A stretch of 64,000 nt of DNA from assembly GCA_026989455.1 (NCBI GenBank), contig JALSJH010000059.1, forward strand, positions 784 to 64,783, given 5' to 3'. The position numbers were made by a program, and so were the translations under genes. The notes beneath the pieces were generated by a model. It did no database searches. It was not told the origin of the DNA and saw only the letters and a list, made by a program, of their open reading frames with translations. This document shows, piece by piece, positions 7,855 to 26,426 of the stretch (positions are counted from its first letter, which is position 1; every line of letters starts with the position of its first letter). The stretch is from Chromatiales bacterium. Lineage in GTDB: Bacteria; Pseudomonadota; Gammaproteobacteria; RBG-16-57-12.

Positions 7855-8772
7855 TCACTTGGTATGACAGGTGAGACACAAGGCGCTTTCGGCGTTTGAG
7901 ATCCGTAAAAAACTTGGAATGAACTCACTGGTTGGCCCTGCCGATGGCACACCATGGGGGTCATGACAAGAGGCACACTCCACCTCATAGCCCTCCCCCG
8001 TATTGTACATGCGAATTTCGTTGGTATCACTCCGGCCATTTCCATTGATATCAAAAAAGCTTAATTTCCCAGCCTGAATGCCCGTAGGTATCCTAAAGTC
8101 GACGCCCGCGCCAAGGGTGGTGGGATATTCCACGCCGATGGGGTGGTCATTACGTAGATCAGTACTGATGAAAAAGGCTGAAAAATCGGCCATTCCCAGC
8201 GAAGGAAACATCGGTGGTGTGCCATGGCAGCGGTTGCAGTCTGAGGCGGTGCTACCAAACATAACCGCGTGGTTGCCACCGCTAGGGCCTGGCCCACTCC
8301 AGCTATCGAGAAAGGCCATATCAACACTGCTCTCCTGAGCGGGGTTATAACCACCCGAGCCGGGCATGTTGATCACCGAGTCTATGGCGATGGTGCCATC
8401 GTGACAAGAGAGGCAGGTTAACGAATTAGCCCCAGGGTCGGTGATAGTCTGGCCTAGGGTGGTGGGCATGTCGTAGAGTGTATAGGGATCCGACGGGCGG
8501 GTTCTGTTCCAAAGTGGTATCGCCCCCATCTGGCCGCTGGCTCCATGGGGGGTGTGGCAGTAGACACATACGGCATCATAGTCGTTGCGATAGGCGTTCA
8601 TGAACCCTTCCATGTCTGAGTAGCGCTGGGTCAGGTTATGCCCGGTGTTGGCTACCGTGGTATGGTTGGGTGCCTTGGAGGCCGCACGCCAGCCATCAGC
8701 AGAGGCTACTGAAATCAATAGCAGAGTGCTGATTGTAACGAGCAGTACCAAAGAGCTACGGGTGAATCGCAT
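7855..8772 (-). CDS. Secreted pentaheme c-type cytochrome
   Basis: Signal peptide followed by five CxxCH motifs (CVYCH, CLSCH, CNRCH, CASCH, CLTCH). Paralogous to the ORF at 32782-33633. Monocistronic and divergent from the histidine kinase gene. Confidence 0.8.
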   Translation of the reverse strand: MRFTRSSLVLLVTISTLLLISVASADGWRAASKAPNHTTVANTGHNLTQRYSDMEGFMNAYRNDYDAVCVYCHTPHGASGQMGAIPLWNRTRPSDPYTLYDMPTTLGQTITDPGANSLTCLSCHDGTIAIDSVINMPGSGGYNPAQESSVDMAFLDSWSGPGPSGGNHAVMFGSTASDCNRCHGTPPMFPSLGMADFSAFFISTDLRNDHPIGVEYPTTLGAGVDFRIPTGIQAGKLSFFDINGNGRSDTNEIRMYNTGEGYEVECASCHDPHGVPSAGPTSEFIPSFLRISNAESALCLTCHTK

Positions 8773-9049
8773 ACAACCTCCACGGCCAAGCGTAAATATT
8801 AATTAGTGTATTATAGTTGTTATTTTTTGGTTAATAAAGTTTATAAGTGAAGCGACCTTCTAGGTGAGAGACTATTGGTTGGGTGCGGTTACGATCGCTA
8901 CTCTCTACTTGTATAGTGTCGACCAATCACGACAAACCTTTTGTTTTTTGTTGGATTGGGTGAGGGTTTTCTGCGATGGCCCCAAGAGTGGACGTTTTGG
9001 GTGGGTTGAAAATTACCGAAGAGCCGAAGATGGTGGATCCGTAAGCGCT

Positions 9050-10810
9050 ATGAAAAAACTAATCGATAAATTTGATACGCCGATCCATCACGAGCAGATA
9101 CGCGCCCTGTATCAGCAGTCACCCTTTGTGCTCTTCAGTGTGTTGGCAGTAACTTTCATCGTTGCCATCTTTTTTTGGGAGCAGGTTGATCACCAGCTGC
9201 TGATCTCCTGGGTGGTGGTCAATTTGTCACTCACTTTTGCTAGGGTAGTGCTGGTTAAATCTTTTCAACGTGTTAACCCACAGGGGTCCACGCTGGTGAA
9301 GTGGGGGTTGCTGTTCTCATTTTCATCGCTGCTTTCCGGGGTTATCTGGGGGCAGATCGCGGTTCTGTTTATGGATACGGGGGATTTGATCAATACCCTG
9401 TTTTCGGTGCTGGTAATTATTGGCATGGCATCGGGAAGCCAGGTTTCACTCTCCACTTTCTTGCCAGCCTACTTTGGTTTTGGTGTGCCAACGCTGCTGC
9501 CACTGGCGGTTGTTTTATTCAATCAGCCTGAAAACACCTTTGTATTGATTGGTTATATGGCGATGGTGTTCATCATCGCCAGTCTGGCCTTCTCGCTCAT
9601 TATGAATCGCAATGTTTCGGAGTCGATACGGCTGCGATTCGAAAATCTGGATCTGCTGGAGAGCCTTGAACTGCAAAAAGATATTGCTGAAAAAGCCAAT
9701 ACAGATAAATCACGGTTCCTTGCGGCGACCAGCCATGACCTACGCCAACCGCTGCACGCCATGGACCTTTACCTGGGTGCCTTAAAAAATATACTGAGTG
9801 AACAGGAGCAGGTTGAGCTGTTAAATAAGGGGCTGCAATCCAGTGCCGCGCTGGGTGAACTATTGGCGGCGTTGATGGATGTATCACGTCTGGATGCGGG
9901 GGATGTGGTGGTTGATTTCAGCGTGGTTAACCTCGATAGCTTGTTGCAGACTATCTGTGATGAGTATCAGGAGAAGGCGAGTTGCCAGAAGATGGTGCTT
10001 GAGTTTAAGCCATCGAAGTTGCTAGTGGAGAGTGACGAGTTAATGTTGGGGCGGATGCTGCGTAATTTGGTTAATAATGCGTGTACCCATAGCGCCGGAA
10101 CTCATATTTTACTTAAGGCTGAAAAGAGTGGAGAGCGAGTATGTCTTACGGTATTTGATAATGGTAAAGGTATCCCTAAGTCGCAACAGCAACAGGTGTT
10201 TTCCGAGTTTTATCAGTTGAATAATCCTGAGCGTGACAGAAATAAAGGGCTGGGTCTAGGGTTGGCTATTGTTAAGCGCCTTGCCACTCTTTTGCACCAT
10301 GATCTGCAGCTGGAGAGTGCGGCAGGAGAGGGCTGCTCTTTTAAGTTGTGTTTGCCCTTTATCGGGGTGGCTGATAACGCGGTGATCGATGCGGTGGATA
10401 CCACTAGCCTGGATGTCTCTGGGCTGTTTGTCATTCTTGTTGATGATGAAGCGGATATCAGAAATGCCATGCGCACCTTGTTGTTGCAATGGGGGTGTGA
10501 GTTGCTGGTGGCGGACAGTTTGCAATCATTGCAGCGGGAGCTGGCCGAAATTAACTATCCACAGCCCGATGTGTTGCTGTGTGACTATCGTCTGCGGGAG
10601 AATAAAAATGGTTTGGAGGTGGTTGTCGCCATGCGGCAATATTTTAATGAAGAACTTCCGGCGGTTATTATCAGTGGCGATACTGACAAAGCGATAGAGG
10701 CGGAGGCCCTGGAGCAGGGGTGTGATGTTTTACACAAGCCGATCCGCCCCGAGCTATTGCGTACAGCGATTTATAACCTTGCTAGGAAGTCTCTGATTAA
10801 GCCAGCATAA
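9050..10810 (+). CDS. Hybrid sensor histidine kinase (6-TM N-terminal sensor, HisKA, HATPase, C-terminal receiver)
   Basis: Six predicted TM helices. H-box ATSHDLRQPLHAM, N/G boxes (LVNNACTHS, DNGKGIP, GLGLGLAIV). C-terminal REC domain (ILVDDE ... LCDYRL). The track ORF begins at 8864, but the likely start is the ATG at 9050 (MKKLIDKF), so the start is approximate. Confidence 0.75.
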   Translation: MKKLIDKFDTPIHHEQIRALYQQSPFVLFSVLAVTFIVAIFFWEQVDHQLLISWVVVNLSLTFARVVLVKSFQRVNPQGSTLVKWGLLFSFSSLLSGVIWGQIAVLFMDTGDLINTLFSVLVIIGMASGSQVSLSTFLPAYFGFGVPTLLPLAVVLFNQPENTFVLIGYMAMVFIIASLAFSLIMNRNVSESIRLRFENLDLLESLELQKDIAEKANTDKSRFLAATSHDLRQPLHAMDLYLGALKNILSEQEQVELLNKGLQSSAALGELLAALMDVSRLDAGDVVVDFSVVNLDSLLQTICDEYQEKASCQKMVLEFKPSKLLVESDELMLGRMLRNLVNNACTHSAGTHILLKAEKSGERVCLTVFDNGKGIPKSQQQQVFSEFYQLNNPERDRNKGLGLGLAIVKRLATLLHHDLQLESAAGEGCSFKLCLPFIGVADNAVIDAVDTTSLDVSGLFVILVDDEADIRNAMRTLLLQWGCELLVADSLQSLQRELAEINYPQPDVLLCDYRLRENKNGLEVVVAMRQYFNEELPAVIISGDTDKAIEAEALEQGCDVLHKPIRPELLRTAIYNLARKSLIKPA

Positions 10811-10842: not shown

Positions 10843-11442
10843 TTATGAAGGACTGATACCTAAAAGTTCACGCGCTTTCAAGCCGGCCTGCATGCGATTA
10901 TCTACCTTCAGCAAGCGCAGCAGTACCGTGATGTACTGCTTGATAGTACCTTCCGATAGATACATCTTTTCTGCAATGTCCTTGTTGCTTAGCCCTTCGG
11001 CAAGATGAGCGAGAATCTGCTTCTGTTTATCTGAAAGGTCAACGGTGTTGGCTTTATCCAGATTAATAGGCAGATAACGTACACCCAATAAAACCTGCTT
11101 CACCGCCAGTAAAATGGTATCCCCTGAGGATGATTTTGTGACATAACCGGCAGCACCTGCATCAATACAACTGCGAATGGTCTGGCTATTTTCATCGGCA
11201 GAAACAATCAGCAGGGGGGGGCTTTTTAGTTGTGAGCAGAGCTGTTTGATGCTGACCGCGCCTTGCATTCCCGGCATCCCTAAATCCATCATCAATAGAC
11301 CGTAATCCGCGTGATGCAGGCGCTCTCTGACGCTATCCAGCGTATCAGCAAAATCAATAACCAGATCTTCATCGAGTTGTTTCAACCAGACCGCCATGCT
11401 GTCGCGGAACAGACCATGGTCATCGGCAAGTAATAGATGCAA
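10843..11442 (-). CDS. Response regulator, NarL/FixJ (LuxR-HTH) family
   Basis: N-terminal REC domain (LLLADDHGLFRD ... LLMMDLGMPG) and C-terminal LuxR HTH (LSDKQKQILAHLAEGLSNKDIAEKMYLSEGTIKQYITVLLRKL). Confidence 0.85.
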   Translation of the reverse strand: MHLLLADDHGLFRDSMAVWLKQLDEDLVIDFADTLDSVRERLHHADYGLLMMDLGMPGMQGAVSIKQLCSQLKSPPLLIVSADENSQTIRSCIDAGAAGYVTKSSSGDTILLAVKQVLLGVRYLPINLDKANTVDLSDKQKQILAHLAEGLSNKDIAEKMYLSEGTIKQYITVLLRLLKVDNRMQAGLKARELLGISPS

Positions 11443-11540: not shown

Positions 11541-11600
11541 ATATTGGGTGGGGGCTGTTTAGGTGATAATGAGCACACTAACATATCAGCATTAAAAAGG

Positions 11601-14453
11601 ATGTTACACATGTATAACCCGCGAAAAGGTACCTTGTTTTACCCGTTTTTAATCGCTGCGCTACTGCTCTCCATAACCCTGCTTAGTGGCTGTGGTGGGG
11701 GTGAAGAGAGTGTTGCTGAGGGTGCGCCGGAGACGTTGCAGGAGGAGGCCATCATCGCAACATCCAAGATTTCTGGTTATGTTCTGGTAGCGAGTCTCCC
11801 GGTCAATGACACAACAGTGCAATACACATACCAGGCTTCTTTTGATAATGGTGACTTTCCAGCAAGCCAGGTGACGGCTCGCATTACCGAAACTCCGGAT
11901 GGCATCATCCTCATTGATGGTACCTTGAGCTTCAGTAATGTGGAAGCCAGTGGTCGCCAAGTGAGTAACAAGCACTTTGTTATTCAACGTGATCTTAGTA
12001 AGCCATTTCATGTTAATGACCTGATTTGGGCTATTGAGGCTCAGCGTGAAGCCAGCCTAAGTTTTGATGCTGAACAGTATGAGCTGCGGATGGGGGTTGG
12101 CGAGACCCGCGATGTCAGTTACCAGCTATTGGCGTTCAATCCGGATACGGTGGCTACTGGGCTGAGTTTGCGGGAAGAGGTTGATGCGGCTGTGCAGCTG
12201 AGCAGCCGTAATAGCGGCGTAATTAGTTTGACCCCAGGTAGTAGTCGTTTTCGGCTTAGCCAGAGCATCACCTCCCTGACTACCGGTCGTTTTGAATTGA
12301 CCCTTACCGCTACTTTGCCAAGTACTGGCTTGGAGCAGAGCGTGCGCATCAATATTATTGTTGAAGCCGATTTGGATGGCGATGGTGTGCCTGATGAGAT
12401 TGATCTGTGTGCCTTTAGTATCTTGGGTGACTCCGTCGATAACAGTGGTTGTGCGGCAACCGATGTGGTTGATAGCAGCGCCTTTCGTGACTTGCAGATA
12501 GGTGAGACCACCTTTCGTGTGCAAGAGAATAATCTCGAAGAGCAATACTCAAACGGCATACTCACCGGGTTGCAGGCCAGTGGCTCACTCTTACTACTGA
12601 CCCCTCTCGGTGATATTGTATTGAAAGAGGCTGAGCTTGTTTTTGAGTATGGTACATCCGGGATGGGTGGTATCGAGCGTCTACGGGGTACTGCACAAGT
12701 CCCCTTTCCTGATGTGGGTATGCTGGCTGATGCAGAGGTTGGTACACCGGTGATAGCGGATGTGGGCCTCGATTATGGCCGTAACTTGTCTGATCTTGAA
12801 GCACCGTTGGTAGATGATCGCCAATATCTGTTTTTCAACTTTAGTGCTGGCTTTGAGGCGAGTGTTGGCCCTATCAGTTTCGAAGCGCCGGGTGGCAAGG
12901 CGATTACCTTTGTTCTCGATCCGCTGGACCCCTTCTTTTTCTTCACCGGCGACCTGCCAGGGCTGTCTGATATCGGAGTAGAAGATCTTGGTATTGCCAT
13001 GTCACTGCGGGGGCTGATTCCCTTCACACCTGATACGACTTGGGGTATCGGTGATGATATCGGTAATTTTGATGCCAACCTCTATCTGCAAGGTGTCATT
13101 CCCTTTGCTCGTTGGCCGTTAAATCTTGATGGTTCGCTGGTGGTTGATGTGGATGCCAATGACGATGGGCAGACGCTGTTTAACAGCTTTACGCCAGATG
13201 TAGAGTATGGGGGCAATGGTACGCTCAATGTGGGTGTCGATTTCCTTAAGTTTTTCGGTTTTAGTTTCGAATTGGGCAGTGCCAGTCTGGGTATTAAAAT
13301 GACCAATGGTGAGCAGAATGCCTATTTTAGCGGCATGCTTGATCCCGACACCGATTTTTTGCCGCAAGAGTTGGTGCCAATTCGCCCCAGTGCCACGGTT
13401 AACATGGCGGGCCTTATCAGTGACGATATCGCCAAATCATTTTTACGTGGTGAGGGTGAGTTTAATCTCGATGCTTCAACACTAGGGCGCTTGGTGGGCA
13501 TCAATCTTAATAACCTCAGTACGACAAGCGCAACATTCAGCGCTGACCGTGATGGTATAAACCTGACGGGCTATACACGCACCAGCATCTACCCTGATGT
13601 GGGTTTTGATGGGGATGCTCGGCTCAATGCCAATTTTACGGGGTCATTGACTAGCTGGAGTATCGATCTCAGCGGTGAGATGTCAATTGCCAATACCCCA
13701 ATCAGTGAAGGTCGGCTAGAGGTCAGTACAGCGGGCATGTTGGTGAGTGGTGAGTTTGTCACACCGTTGACCCGCATCGGGATGAACGGGCAGATTGATG
13801 CCAGTGGCATTGAAATGCGCGGTAATACAGGCATTACTATTCCGATCAGCGTGGTGGAGAGCGTGGTTGAGTGGGTGGTAGATGCCGCTATCTGCGGTAC
13901 TGAACGGGTGACTGATGCCGCACGGTGCGGCTTGGATTCAGTGACCAGCAGTGCAATTTGTGGCTACCAGGCCGTGACCAGCGCGGCTCAATGTGGTACC
14001 CGCACCGTGACCAGTGCGGTTCACTGTGGTACGAGCACCATTACCAGTGCCGCCAGATGTGGAACCAATTGGGTGACCGACATCGCAACGTGTGGCTGGA
14101 GTGTCATTACTGGGCAAGGGGGTTGCAGTGTTGCTAGGTCTTGCAGTGTTGCCAATAGCTGTAGTATCGCTAACACCTGTGATATTGCGAATACCTGCTC
14201 GATACCCGCAAGCTGTGATATTCCCCGTGGTTGTAACAACAGCACCAATGTCACGCTTCCAAAGGGTGAATTCCGTGGTGACATCGAACTGTTATTGGGT
14301 AATCAGGGTATCGGTGGTGAAGTGAGTGGTGACTACTGCTTTGCGGGTGACTGCACCACCCTTACTGGGGGACGAGTCAAGGCCGGTAGTAGTGGTCTGG
14401 AGGCATGTATAACCATCCCTGCGGGTATTGGTGAGGTGTGCGCGCCTATCTAA
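11601..14453 (+). CDS. Large lipoprotein with C-terminal Cys-Gly tandem repeat module
   Basis: Likely start at 11601 (MLHMYNPRKG, AAGGA RBS); the track ORF starts at 11544. Lipobox LLSGC. One TSP3-like Ca loop (DLDGDGVPDEID). The C-terminus has 7 x 11-aa repeats (AxCGxxxVTSA) followed by 6 x 6-aa repeats ([ST]C[SD][IV][AP][NR]). No recognisable enzymatic motif. Confidence 0.7.
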   Translation: MLHMYNPRKGTLFYPFLIAALLLSITLLSGCGGGEESVAEGAPETLQEEAIIATSKISGYVLVASLPVNDTTVQYTYQASFDNGDFPASQVTARITETPDGIILIDGTLSFSNVEASGRQVSNKHFVIQRDLSKPFHVNDLIWAIEAQREASLSFDAEQYELRMGVGETRDVSYQLLAFNPDTVATGLSLREEVDAAVQLSSRNSGVISLTPGSSRFRLSQSITSLTTGRFELTLTATLPSTGLEQSVRINIIVEADLDGDGVPDEIDLCAFSILGDSVDNSGCAATDVVDSSAFRDLQIGETTFRVQENNLEEQYSNGILTGLQASGSLLLLTPLGDIVLKEAELVFEYGTSGMGGIERLRGTAQVPFPDVGMLADAEVGTPVIADVGLDYGRNLSDLEAPLVDDRQYLFFNFSAGFEASVGPISFEAPGGKAITFVLDPLDPFFFFTGDLPGLSDIGVEDLGIAMSLRGLIPFTPDTTWGIGDDIGNFDANLYLQGVIPFARWPLNLDGSLVVDVDANDDGQTLFNSFTPDVEYGGNGTLNVGVDFLKFFGFSFELGSASLGIKMTNGEQNAYFSGMLDPDTDFLPQELVPIRPSATVNMAGLISDDIAKSFLRGEGEFNLDASTLGRLVGINLNNLSTTSATFSADRDGINLTGYTRTSIYPDVGFDGDARLNANFTGSLTSWSIDLSGEMSIANTPISEGRLEVSTAGMLVSGEFVTPLTRIGMNGQIDASGIEMRGNTGITIPISVVESVVEWVVDAAICGTERVTDAARCGLDSVTSSAICGYQAVTSAAQCGTRTVTSAVHCGTSTITSAARCGTNWVTDIATCGWSVITGQGGCSVARSCSVANSCSIANTCDIANTCSIPASCDIPRGCNNSTNVTLPKGEFRGDIELLLGNQGIGGEVSGDYCFAGDCTTLTGGRVKAGSSGLEACITIPAGIGEVCAPI
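13880..14240 (+). repeat. Coding tandem repeats (33-bp then 18-bp units) encoding Cys-containing peptide repeats
   Basis: Periodic protein sequence ICGTERVTDAA / RCGLDSVTSSA / ICGYQAVTSAA / QCGTRTVTSAV / HCGTSTITSAA / RCGTNWVTDIA / TCGWSVITGQG, then SCSVAN / SCSIAN / TCDIAN / TCSIPA / SCDIPR. Confidence 0.7.
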
Positions 14454-23588: not shown

Positions 23589-26426
23589 ATGCGCGATTGG
23601 ATTAATTTATTACTGGTTATTACCTTTTCATTGGTATTGGCCGCCTGTGGTGGCGATGGTTTGGGAACCTCCGGAACGACAGCCCAAGATCCGCCACCAG
23701 TGGCTGACCCAGATGCACCTGTTCCCACCTCAGATGCAACCAATATAACGCTATTGGTCAGTAGTCCGCAAATGCCATCAGACGGCTCAAATACAGTTAC
23801 CTTGACGGCGGTGGCACGAGATAACAGCAACAGGTATGTAGAAAACACTACCATTGAGTTCTCGGCATCATCCGGTGGTATTTTAACCGGTGAGCGCACT
23901 GCAACTAACTCTTCAGGGCGAGTCTCTGCAACGCTGGATATTGGTGGCGACCCCGCTAACAGAACAATTGTGGTTACTGCGGTTGATAGTGTAACCGGCC
24001 AGAGTGCTAATCGGTCAGTTGAAGTGAGGGACACGCGGTTTATCTTTTCCGGTCCTCAGCGTATTGAGGTGGGTGAGAGTGCTGAGTTAGTGGTGCAGTT
24101 AGTGGATGCTGGTGGTAACCCAATCACCTTTCAAAATATCACCTTGACCTCCTCTCAGGGTAATACCATACAAGCACCTACTGGGCTGGTTACTGATAGT
24201 ACCGGTCGTATTACAGTGACAGTACTTGGCGGGGTCGCGGGTTCTGATTTCATTACCGCCAGCGCTTTTGGTCTGAATGCTGATAACAGTACCTTTTCAC
24301 TGGATATTATCACTGCGGATGCCATTTCATTTTACTTCGACTTGCCGGTCGATAATGCTGAGATTGCATTGGGCACGAACGCTGCTTTTCGTGTCTGCTT
24401 GACGGATGGCGCAGCCGCTGTAGCGGCGGGAACCACCATTCAAATTTCATCTACCCGCGGAACCTTTGGTTCAAGTGGTGGAGCTGTTGCCTCTTACAGC
24501 TCGGATGGATTGGCAACTTGTTGGGATGATACGCTGTCCAACCAAGGAGCGGGCTTCGCTCAGGTATTGGCGACTACCTCCAGTGCTACAGTCGCTTATG
24601 ATGAGCTGAGTGCCTCAAAATTACTTGAGTTTATTTCAACCACTGTCAGCTTAGTTAATATACAAGCTGCGAAATCCATTTTGGAGCGCGGAGAGCAGAC
24701 TCAAATTGTCGCTACATTGCGTGATAGTCACTATAATTTGGTGAAAAATAGAACGGTCAGTTTTTCCATTGATGCCGATGCCAGTAATGGCAATCTTAAC
24801 CCCCCCACAGCGACCACCAACAGTAATGGGGAGGCAACAGTTGTCTATACTGCGGGGATGGCTAGCTCTGGGCTGTATGATGTTATTATCAAAGCAGAAG
24901 ATTATGAGTCGGGGCTTTTTTCAACCACAGAGCTTACGGTTCAAAATAGAGCATTGCATGTAGCGCTGGGTCGCGGTAATACTATGGCTAATTATGATGA
25001 TGGGTCCTTAACCTCCTACGCGCTACCTTATAGTGCCATCGTAACTGATTCTGCTGGGCAACCTGTTGCTAATCAGCCGATAAGCCTCTCCATCTGGTCG
25101 CATCGATATTTCAAAGGTAGTTACTACCCCACATACTCTCCAACCGGCGGTTTTATTCTCTATAGCAATGCACCAGTTGATGAGTATGAGTGGGATGTGC
25201 CCGGTGACGGTGTAATTAGTTGGGGGCGCGTGCTCAGTTGTGGTAATGAAGATACTGATTTTAACGGCATCGCAGACTTTAATGAGGACCTCAATAGAAA
25301 TAGAACTTTTGACCGGACAAATGAAGATCTGAATGGTAATGGTGTTATCGATTTAAGTGAGGATACCAATGCAAATGGTATTTTGGATATTCTTGAGGAT
25401 GCGAATCGAAATGGTATTTTAGATCCGGGTGAGGATCTTAATGGTAATGGTAAATTGGATGCCACTGAAGATATCAACCTCAATGGGGTGTTGGATGGTA
25501 GTGAAGATGTCAATGAAAATGGTATTTTGGATGTGCTCGAAGATACCAACCTCAATGGTCGATTGGATCCAGGCGAGGATTTGAATTTCAATGGTGTGCT
25601 AGATGCTACGGAGGATCTGGACGGCGATGGTTTCTTGACCTCGGAAGATATTAATCGCAACGGTATTTTGGACCCGGGTGAAGATACCAATGGTGATGGT
25701 GTGTTGACCACAGAAGATCTTAACGGCAACGGGGTGCTGGATGTCAGTGAAGATCTTAACCTCAACGGTGTGCTGGATTTTGGTGAAGACCTGAACGGTA
25801 ACGGTATCATTGATGTGAGTGAAGACCGTAATTTGAATGGTTTTCTGGATGTGCTTGAAGATGCCAATAGAAATGGCGTGTTAGACCCGGGTGAAGACCT
25901 CAATGGTAATGGTCTTTTAGATCTTAGCGAAGATATTAATGGTAATGGTGTGCTGGATGTTGATGAAGACATTAATGGTGATGGCGTATTCTATGCCTAC
26001 GAGGATAGTAACCAAAATGGTATTTTAGACCCGGGTGAAGATCTGAATGGTGACGGTATTCTCAACCTTCCAGTAGATGTAGATGTGAATGGTAATGGCC
26101 GTCTTGACCCAGGCAATGTTGCGACAATTTCGGTAGATGACACTATTGGTGCCTTCTCAATCAACACCACCACTGATGAAAATGGTGTGGCTATCTTTGC
26201 AGTGATTTATGCTGAAAGTTTTGCAGGTTGGTTGGAGGTGTCACTTGAAGCGAGAGTGATCGTTGATGGTACTGAAAACTCGGACCGGACTCGCTTTATT
26301 TTACCGGCACTGGCCGATGACCTTAATCAGGAGGATACTCCCCCGGCAGGCTATGTTAGCCCCTTTGGTCGTGGTTATGATGTGCGTACTGGCCTGATTC
26401 AGGGTTGTACGGTGGACGAGATTTAG
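23589..26426 (+). CDS. Large lipoprotein with bacterial Ig-like domains and about 25 tandem EF-hand/TSP3-like calcium-binding loops
   Basis: Lipobox LVLAACGG. Several roughly 90-aa Ig-like (Big-type) repeats (TIVVTAVDSVTGQSANRSVEV and similar). From about residue 545 to 850, back-to-back 11-13 aa loops match D-x-N-x-N-G-x-L-D-x-x-E-D. Confidence 0.75.
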   Translation: MRDWINLLLVITFSLVLAACGGDGLGTSGTTAQDPPPVADPDAPVPTSDATNITLLVSSPQMPSDGSNTVTLTAVARDNSNRYVENTTIEFSASSGGILTGERTATNSSGRVSATLDIGGDPANRTIVVTAVDSVTGQSANRSVEVRDTRFIFSGPQRIEVGESAELVVQLVDAGGNPITFQNITLTSSQGNTIQAPTGLVTDSTGRITVTVLGGVAGSDFITASAFGLNADNSTFSLDIITADAISFYFDLPVDNAEIALGTNAAFRVCLTDGAAAVAAGTTIQISSTRGTFGSSGGAVASYSSDGLATCWDDTLSNQGAGFAQVLATTSSATVAYDELSASKLLEFISTTVSLVNIQAAKSILERGEQTQIVATLRDSHYNLVKNRTVSFSIDADASNGNLNPPTATTNSNGEATVVYTAGMASSGLYDVIIKAEDYESGLFSTTELTVQNRALHVALGRGNTMANYDDGSLTSYALPYSAIVTDSAGQPVANQPISLSIWSHRYFKGSYYPTYSPTGGFILYSNAPVDEYEWDVPGDGVISWGRVLSCGNEDTDFNGIADFNEDLNRNRTFDRTNEDLNGNGVIDLSEDTNANGILDILEDANRNGILDPGEDLNGNGKLDATEDINLNGVLDGSEDVNENGILDVLEDTNLNGRLDPGEDLNFNGVLDATEDLDGDGFLTSEDINRNGILDPGEDTNGDGVLTTEDLNGNGVLDVSEDLNLNGVLDFGEDLNGNGIIDVSEDRNLNGFLDVLEDANRNGVLDPGEDLNGNGLLDLSEDINGNGVLDVDEDINGDGVFYAYEDSNQNGILDPGEDLNGDGILNLPVDVDVNGNGRLDPGNVATISVDDTIGAFSINTTTDENGVAIFAVIYAESFAGWLEVSLEARVIVDGTENSDRTRFILPALADDLNQEDTPPAGYVSPFGRGYDVRTGLIQGCTVDEI
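25224..26139 (+). repeat. Coding tandem repeat (roughly 36-39 bp units) encoding the Ca-binding loop array
   Basis: Visible periodicity of GATxTxAATGGxAATGGTGTGCTGGAT-like units. The antisense ORF 25160-25972 is an artefact of this repeat. Confidence 0.7.

Follow-up and report, generated by a model that had tools for sequence, protein, structure and literature searches.

What structure is formed by a protein segment in which cysteines recur first at every eleventh and then at every sixth residue? The question is raised by the C-terminal module of a 947-amino-acid lipoprotein encoded in a stretch of 64,000 nucleotides from a Chromatiales bacterium (assembly GCA_026989455.1, contig JALSJH010000059.1, positions 784 to 64,783 of the forward strand; this whole stretch is called the window here, and positions are numbered from its first letter). 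A sequence-only reading had pointed to two cysteine-rich arrays at 13880-14240, taken as consecutive repeats of no described family that could form a disulfide ladder or a metal-binding or redox-active unit, and had proposed a Pfam search and a structure prediction of the C-terminus. The computational analysis reported here indicates that the two arrays are probably the two arms of a single hairpin, and that the module would be a covalently laddered beta-hairpin spike.

The arrays themselves are real, and the coordinates given for them were accurate to a few bases. The first is composed of seven 11-residue units (AAICGTERVTD, AARCGLDSVTS, SAICGYQAVTS, AAQCGTRTVTS, AVHCGTSTITS, AARCGTNWVTD and IATCGWSVITG), with cysteines at residues 762, 773, 784, 795, 806, 817 and 828 and then at 839, a spacing of exactly 11. 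After the linker QGG, seven hexads follow (CSVARS, CSVANS, CSIANT, CDIANT, CSIPAS, CDIPRG and CNNSTN), whose cysteines at 839, 845, 851, 857, 863, 869 and 875 recur at intervals of exactly 6 residues, and a tail adds four more cysteines; the last 186 residues hold 18. When the last 193 residues were shuffled 100,000 times, a run of seven equal cysteine spacings never arose. At the DNA level, Tandem Repeats Finder recovered 3.3 copies of a 33-bp unit with 76% matches at 13959-14067 and 2.7 copies of an 18-bp unit with 70% matches at 14149-14197, and the identity among repeat units was only about 52%. This identity was 0.34-0.40 at third codon positions versus 0.50-0.66 at positions 1 and 2, and the low third-position value points to old repeats that are maintained by selection on the protein rather than to a slippage hotspot. 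The cysteine columns were nearly invariant over 11 orthologues. The assembly collapse of a simple repeat, which the sequence-only reading had named as the artefact to fear, was checked and ruled out, since the units have diverged and the gene is byte-identical in two further assemblies (ENA ERZ27262642 and Logan SRR7968108). An open reading frame (ORF) for 87 amino acids at 14021-14284 on the reverse strand overlaps the repeats; it is a mechanical ORF without support, and the protein-level conservation lies in the forward frame.

The first property that ties the two arrays to each other is their copy number. The full-length orthologues (n = 11, 48-100% identity, all of them unnamed proteins) carry either 7+7 or 5+5 units, never a mixture, with 18 or 14 C-terminal cysteines. 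The copy-number variation anticipated from the tandem repeats therefore holds among relatives, while variation between strains by slippage is unlikely, given the codon-position identities and the three identical assemblies. To widen the sample, a profile of the C-terminal region was used in a HMMER search of 1.84 billion representatives, in which 208 proteins passed E<=1e-3, 126 of them also E<=1e-10; all 208 are unnamed cluster representatives, most of them with a signal peptide, a few matched in the tail only or by low complexity, and about 120 of the retrieved sequences presented at least three cysteines spaced by 11 followed by at least three spaced by 6. Strict spacing counts in 103 representatives gave a Pearson correlation of r = 0.78 between the arms, which were equal in 45 proteins and within one unit of each other in 81. 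With a second parser, equal arms were found in 38 of 106 proteins versus 13 expected, and 0 of 20,000 permutations reached 38. Most of the mismatches stem from the way in which irregular end units were parsed: counts made by hand with these units included were 11/11 in P0017, 9/9 in P0018, P0030 and P0136, 8/8 in P0024, P0117 and P0139, 5/5 in P0056, 6/6 in P0059 and 15/15 in P0032, and matched numbers across the family range from 4/4 to 15/15. A tolerant cysteine-chain parser took in cysteines of downstream domains, which blurred its counts, and the strict and hand counts are the more reliable ones.

Two members of the family illustrate how closely the arms follow each other. In P0032 (residues ~480-746), the up-arm is built of a 22-residue super-repeat (VQCGTKYVTSAAECGTDTxVKS) and the down-arm of a 16-residue super-repeat in which the cysteine spacing alternates between 6 and 10; the counts are still 15 and 15, and rung matching therefore tolerates bulges in the down-arm. 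The second case is an orthologous locus with 7+7 units, L003, nested among 5+5 relatives. Its 11-mer array contains a 66-bp tandem duplication of 88% identity (10208-10352) and its hexad array a young 18-bp repeat of 3.3 copies and 80% identity (10427-10486), so both arms grew recently by an equal number of units. Judged from these repeats, the locus looks like an independent and coupled expansion from a 5+5 ancestor.

The second property is the covariation of residues between the arms. It was assessed in 96 proteins with about 600 units per arm, by comparing 14 registers (antiparallel or parallel, offsets -3 to +3) with a null in which hexads were shuffled within each protein; this within-protein null was size-matched for each register, because smaller samples inflate mutual information. 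Summed mutual information reached z = 13.1 in one antiparallel register and at most 4.9 in the 13 others. The signal was located between position 7 of the 11-mer (Cys+3) and position 5 of the hexad (two residues before the next cysteine), with z = 10.9, a value attained in 0 of 500 shuffles, and |z| was below 2 for this pair in every other register. With the end units excluded, z was still 8.6 for this pair and 3.1 for the pair formed by V9 of the 11-mer and V3 of the hexad. Pairing of 7 with 5 and of 9 with 3 is the alternation that would be expected if these residues were neighbours across the two strands and shared a face of an antiparallel ladder. In the 7-5 pair, 139 of 217 cases combined D or E with K or R (odds ratio of 4.2, with p = 3e-14), and S or T was paired with N; opposite charges made up 29% of the pairs in the favoured register versus 14-22% in the others. 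This register sets the first hexad cysteine opposite the last 11-mer cysteine, and so on outward, and therefore requires equal numbers in the two arms. Consequently, the arrays are better seen as two arms of one hairpin than as the consecutive, independent repeats of the sequence-only reading.

The third line of evidence is structure prediction. AlphaFold2, run on residues 741-947 with 34 natural homologous C-termini (35 sequences in all), yielded a model with a mean predicted local distance difference test score (pLDDT) of 92.3 and no residue below 70. Each 11-mer was predicted as a four-residue helical turn (A-A-x-C), a glycine and a strand of four to five residues (x-x-x-V-T), so that the up-arm runs from H19-22/E24-27 to H74-77/E79-82 (model residue n being protein residue n+740) with pLDDT of 87-95. 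Each hexad was predicted as a five-residue strand, and the down-arm as a single long strand, extended and interrupted at hexad position 5 (E99-102, 104-108, 110-114, 116-120, 122-126 and 129-132). The pLDDT was 82-87 at the hairpin tip, and predicted strands flanking the module on both sides lengthen the ribbon. The model agrees with the covariation, which was obtained independently of it. Matched copy numbers, register-specific covariation and a confident ladder model thus favour the disulfide ladder among the options raised at the outset.

In the structure that these results suggest, the chain would exit the protein body as the seven 11-mers, each contributing a one-turn helix (A-A-x-C), a glycine and a short strand (x-x-x-V-T), would reverse at C828-GWSVITGQGG-C839, where the innermost rung would close a 10-residue loop, and would return as seven hexads in one extended strand. 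Each hexad strand would lie antiparallel to the short strand of one 11-mer, and the cysteine ending the helical turn of a unit would bond the cysteine starting the next hexad, which would give the nested ladder C828-C839, C817-C845, C806-C851, C795-C857, C784-C863, C773-C869 and C762-C875. One face of the ribbon would present the disulfide, V9 with V3, and a polar or salt-bridge pair across the strands, formed by position 7 of the 11-mer and position 5 of the hexad; E765-R873 would be among these pairs in this protein. The product would be a slender spike with covalent bracing. Six extended residues per rung would correspond to about 2 nm, and thus to about 14 nm here, and the rung number would fix the length. 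Because the hairpin begins and ends at its base, it would project from the protein rather than link two domains; each rung takes one unit from each arm, and the 33-bp and 18-bp arrays would therefore expand or contract only together. The repeat pattern, the matched numbers, the antiparallel register and the predicted secondary structure are computational results, whereas we infer the oxidised state of the cysteine pairs, the dimensions of the rod and the role of a rigid, chemically robust structural element that would project from an exported protein.

The N-terminus of the lipoprotein fits such a location. It reads MYNPRKG...LLSGC and contains a lipobox of the form [LVI][ASTVI][GAS]-C, present here as MYNPRKGTLFYPFLIAALLLSITLLSG-C28, whose cysteine is nearly invariant among orthologues (alignment A1). 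The protein is accordingly predicted from its sequence to be exported and lipid-anchored, and hence to reside in an oxidising compartment. The residue following C28 is Gly rather than Asp, and for this reason sorting to the outer membrane would be expected by the E. coli rule.

Several points weigh against the laddered hairpin. Three of the five AlphaFold2 models scored lower (84.9, 75.9 and 70.4), the predicted template modelling score was only 0.48, and a first run, on the full-length protein with 12 sequences, gave pLDDT below 50 at residues 749-882 (and of 66-78 in the tail). The bonding of cysteine to cysteine follows from the register and the predicted secondary structure, not from sulfur-sulfur distances. 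The representatives share ancestry, and the null controls composition within each protein and not all phylogenetic structure. Automated counts were noisy for short arrays, and cysteine totals in the stretch examined were odd in P0130 (13) and in the P0075 group (17), though even in most members checked. Finally, nested disulfides, in which the first cysteine pairs with the last, pose more difficulty for the DsbA pathway than any other pattern, and an isomerase would be needed.

The alternatives were weighed against the same evidence. It is unlikely that the cysteines remain reduced and serve to bind metal, with one ion held by the two cysteines of each rung, or to shuttle electrons at the cell surface. 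A module with 14 regularly spaced cysteines invites this explanation, pairwise matching would suit two-coordinate metal sites just as well, relatives come from hydrothermal and sediment metagenomes, which are metal-rich settings, and a multihaem cytochrome c gene is placed 3 kb upstream of the lipoprotein gene (7855-8772). However, the cytochrome is not conserved beside the orthologues, since tblastn gave no match to it in the orthologue loci. Moreover, with one cysteine per unit and spacings of 11 and 6 only, the module lacks CxxC, CxC and CC clusters and conserved His or Met partners, whereas metallothionein-type proteins are dense in such cysteine motifs. The predicted oxidising compartment also argues against reduced thiols, rungs about 2 nm apart would be too far from each other for electron hopping, and the unrelated partner domains of the module in other proteins (proteases, lectins and glycosidases) are better suited by a structural element. 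The metal-binding or redox role proposed in the sequence-only reading thus found no positive evidence.

A second alternative, which we regard as quite improbable, places the same pairing between molecules: the 11-mer arm of one chain would be cross-linked to the hexad arm of another, generating dimers, polymers, or a sheath or fibre. Matched numbers and an antiparallel register are equally compatible with pairing within or between molecules, and the free edges of two-stranded ribbons would favour association. Against it, the turn is short, being of 10 residues here and bracketed by the two innermost cysteines, AlphaFold2 confidently folds the monomer as a hairpin, and the two arms are always adjacent in one chain and in the same order.

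Still less probable is a miniature version of the antigen I/II stalk, in which the hendecads would form a continuous alpha-helix of 16.5 A per unit stapled to a polyproline-II (PPII) or extended hexad strand. This was the initial structural model of the present analysis, dropped on the second AlphaFold2 run and the i/i+2 covariation. It drew on the 11-residue period, equal to three helical turns, on the A, C, G and V positions sharing one face of the helical wheel, on the frequent Pro at hexad position 4, and on the closeness of 11 x 1.5 A to 6 x 3 A. A weak match to a helical region of RIFIN with the pattern CG...11...CG also came from a profile search that covered all PDB sequences. However, AlphaFold2 yields only four-residue helical turns between strands, the alternation of the 7-5 and 9-3 pairs matches a beta ladder rather than one side of a helix, and the units carry an N-cap-like [ST][SD], a helix-terminating Gly and beta-branched V, T and I. 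The RIFIN match itself (PDB 7f9k, E = 0.41, the best of that search and non-significant) involves a Plasmodium segment, TSCGLNSLANQAICGLRT, with CG, 11 residues and CG again, and is probably a coincidence.

The remaining alternative, two independent solenoids with disulfides inside each array, the hexads forming a left-handed beta-helix or an antifreeze-like coil and the 11-mers a separate domain, is very improbable: V-A-N-T-C-S fits the hexapeptide pattern [LIV]-[GAED]-x-x-[STAV]-x, NCBIfam gave weak LpxD matches in 2 of 68 members (E = 0.005), and the Tenebrio antifreeze protein also has a cysteine at every sixth residue, but no Hexapep or antifreeze family of Pfam matched even at E<=10, equal copy numbers, coupled duplication and cross-array covariation would be left unexplained, the odd number of cysteines often found per arm (7 or 5) would leave free thiols under within-array pairing, and P0032 holds 15/15 although its down-arm spacing alternates between 6 and 10. 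The intermolecular, helix/PPII and solenoid explanations all fit the data less well than the hairpin.

Known families were searched extensively for a precedent. The whole lipoprotein had no match over the module in Pfam (E<=1) or NCBIfam, the module alone had none in Pfam at E<=10, and neither database contained a family covering the module in 68 diverse members. The profile search of PDB sequences gave nothing below the E value cited above, and a Foldseek comparison of the confident model with PDB gave at best E 0.017, probability 0.13 and a template modelling score of 0.12. The best Foldseek matches were the long hairpins of aerolysin-type pores, which are read as a resemblance in shape only. 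Similarly, literature searches that covered PPII stalks, hexapeptide and 11-residue repeats, and ladders of cysteines or disulfides yielded no account of the repeat. The earlier impression that no described repeat family accounts for the arrays was supported by the Pfam, NCBIfam, PDB profile and Foldseek searches.

Among known structures, the beetle antifreeze protein of Tenebrio molitor is a single beta-helical solenoid of 12-residue TCTxSxxCxxAx coils, with two cysteines per coil bonded within the coil. It resembles the module in having a cysteine at every sixth residue, a repeat rich in Thr, Ser, Ala and Asn, and disulfides that brace a regular beta structure, but the hexads differ in being partnered by an 11-mer array of matched number with cross-array covariation, in their odd cysteine number per arm and in the lack of a Pfam match. 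The Hexapep left-handed beta-helices of LpxA and LpxD share with the hexads the readable hexapeptide pattern; however, these acyltransferases are cytoplasmic, take three hexads for each turn and lack both a cysteine ladder and a partner array, whereas hexad numbers in the module follow the 11-mer numbers and not multiples of three.

Two other systems come closer in principle. In the antigen I/II (AgI/II) adhesins, the A repeats are 82-residue alanine-rich helices and the P repeats 39-residue proline-rich PPII segments, and the numbers of A and P repeats correspond. In its predicted form, the module resembles this stalk as a long thin projection in which one repeat array is folded back on a second array of another period, one repeat from each arm being used per increment of length. 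The presence of two antiparallel arrays of different period with corresponding numbers is thus common to both, whereas helical A and PPII P repeats were not found in the module, which has no Pfam or sequence similarity to AgI/II and a predicted strand with a four-residue turn. The AgI/II stalk of oral streptococci is an alpha-helix/PPII hybrid held non-covalently (Larson et al. 2010, as described in PMC3707005) and has a globular V domain at its tip, whereas the units of the module are of 11 and 6 residues, predicted as beta with helical turns, probably covalently stapled and with a bare 10-residue tip loop.

The theta-defensins, in turn, are cyclic peptides of 18 residues with a three-rung cystine ladder (PMC3624463, as cited in PMC13408038). 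Their likeness to the module would lie in antiparallel strands joined by rung-like cross-strand disulfides that serve stability and not catalysis. Antiparallel facing strands are supported by the AlphaFold2 model (pLDDT 92) and by the 7-5 and 9-3 register, and the equal cysteine numbers on the two arms and the implied geometry would be compatible with successive cross-strand disulfides. However, the theta-defensins are primate peptides whose cysteines are directly opposite on both strands, whereas the module would have 4 to 15 rungs, two periods (11 and 6) and one cysteine of each pair on a helical-turn excursion; it is a 120-residue segment of a 947-residue protein, not cyclized head to tail, and has no sequence relationship to them. 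With no homology and with different periods, secondary structure and scale, the module belongs to neither group. In principle it combines two known ideas; as a protein family it is undescribed, and so, on present evidence, is its architecture.

The module is, by its sequence distribution, a widespread mobile unit that occurs in at least about 100 families of unnamed, secreted proteins known from metagenomes, and is not peculiar to this lipoprotein. Of 82 members that looked full-length, 51 carry it at the C-terminus, 26 immediately after the signal peptide and 5 at an internal site, and the N-terminus is hydrophobic in 65, in keeping with export. Partner domains included astacin, beta-trefoils of the ricin, fascin and FRG1 types, metallophosphatase, SLH, GH16 and crystallin. 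All 10 diverse members that were looked up (10/10) are unnamed and known from metagenomes only, and the gene neighbourhoods of two other module proteins contained ordinary bacterial housekeeping genes and no common partner. A word-indexed homologue search was less productive than the HMMER search, with 2 matches for the C-terminus alone and 11 for a 59-sequence profile. Four members (P0071, P0099, P0110 and P0130) carry four to five Arg at the hairpin tip, as in CDSRRRRRC and CSYGRRRRW. This run looks like a proprotein-convertase-type cleavage site, and a cut there would leave two disulfide-linked chains; the astacin and FRG1/fascin partners found in the same broad set as this subfamily hint at eukaryotic members.

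The features of the lipoprotein gene and of its immediate neighbours are collected in Table 1. The likely start codon of the gene is the ATG at 11610, which has AGGA just 5′ of it, and scans for promoters and terminators around the gene gave nothing beyond the expectation from shuffled sequence. Foldseek matched the N-terminal domains to tandem beta-sandwich pairs, such as RbmA and the C-terminal domains of transglutaminase, with E of ~1e-5 to 1e-4. The following loop gave a sub-threshold Pfam match to TSP_3 (E = 0.0097, 16 bits versus a cut-off of 25) at residues 252-269, which is outside the cysteine module, and its C267 and C281 are nearly invariant across orthologues. The central domain is conserved, with the motifs RGTAQVPFP and DPxDPFFF, and had no match in Pfam. 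It was found without the cysteine ladder in P0012 and in metagenome-assembled genomes (MAGs) of Bryobacterales, Vicinamibacterales, Chloroflexia and Anaerolineae (Acidobacteriota and Chloroflexota; loci L014 and L016-L020), a distribution that marks it as a separate, unnamed domain family. The tail is conserved in the subfamily with a C-terminal module. It contains the sequence KGEFRGD, with an RGD motif kept only among close relatives, and nearly all members with a tail end in I, F or L, which recalls the C-terminal signal of outer-membrane proteins.

Table 1. Features of the lipoprotein gene and its upstream neighbours in the window
Feature	Position	Strand	Basis or remark
Multihaem cytochrome c, 305 amino acids, doubled CXXCH motifs	7855-8772	-	3 kb upstream of the lipoprotein gene; upstream of the kinase
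Hybrid histidine kinase (HisKA, HATPase_c, receiver)	8864..10810	+	Pfam
LuxR/GerE-type response regulator	10843..11442	-	Pfam
ORF with the module	11544-14453	+	ORF list
Lipoprotein gene, 947 amino acids	11610..14453	+	ORF list and translation; stop codon 14451-14453
Predicted signal peptide and lipobox LLSG-C28	11610..11693	+	Read from the sequence
Two predicted N-terminal beta-sandwich (Ig-like) domains, residues 40-252	11727..12365	+	AlphaFold2, pLDDT 84-92
DGDGVPDEIDLC...GC loop, like a thrombospondin type 3 calcium-binding repeat; C267 and C281	12363..12452	+	
Central beta-rich domain, residues ~292-758, without a named family	12483..13883	+	Last predicted strand runs into the ladder
Up-arm, seven 11-residue units A-A-x-C-G-x-x-x-V-T-[SD], residues 759-835	13884..14114	+	Unit table
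Predicted hairpin tip C828-GWSVITGQGG-C839	14091..14126	+	Cysteine spacing shifts from 11 to 6; pairing deduced from the register
Down-arm, seven hexads C-[SDN]-[VI]-[AP]-x-[ST], residues 839-880	14124..14249	+	Unit table
C-terminal tail, ~67 residues (881-947), long predicted beta-hairpins; cysteines 910, 915, 933 and 944	14250..14450	+	pLDDT 89-93

The orthologue loci belong to MAGs labelled Gammaproteobacteria, Chromatiales or Ectothiorhodospiraceae, several of them apparently hydrothermal or deep-sea. In six of these loci (L003-L007 and L009), the orthologous lipoprotein gene is adjoined by a homologue of the kinase, with about 40% identity, and likewise by a LuxR/GerE regulator, though in differing orientation. 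The kinase and the LuxR-type regulator may control the lipoprotein gene, or be sensed through it. Elsewhere in the window, a second large putative surface protein of 945 amino acids, with Big_1 and invasin D3 domains and without a cysteine ladder, is encoded at 23589-26426 on the forward strand.

Taken together with its distribution, the module may represent a new fold class, and on balance we lean slightly towards this broader view: a hetero-periodic (11 + 6) covalent ladder in which 4 to 15 or more nested rungs would make a rod of tunable length. This rod would serve as a plug-in spike on numerous exported proteins from uncultured bacteria, possibly from eukaryotes as well, to which the astacin, fascin and FRG1 partners and the polybasic RRRR tip of one subfamily point, and would be subject to obligate coupled repeat evolution. 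If true, this would be a rare and directly observable case in which two tandem repeats of different period are obliged to evolve at equal copy number. Rod length should be readable from the rung count, and a covalently braced, two-stranded rod of modular length would be an attractive scaffold for protein design. Moreover, up to 15 nested disulfides would put unusual demands on the oxidative folding machinery of the periplasm. If the model holds, the module would be a new, widespread and so far unannotated building block of exported proteins, with ~100 to 200 clusters at 50% identity, none of them named or represented in Pfam or PDB, and "hypothetical proteins" of marine and sediment metagenomes would become members of a recognisable family.

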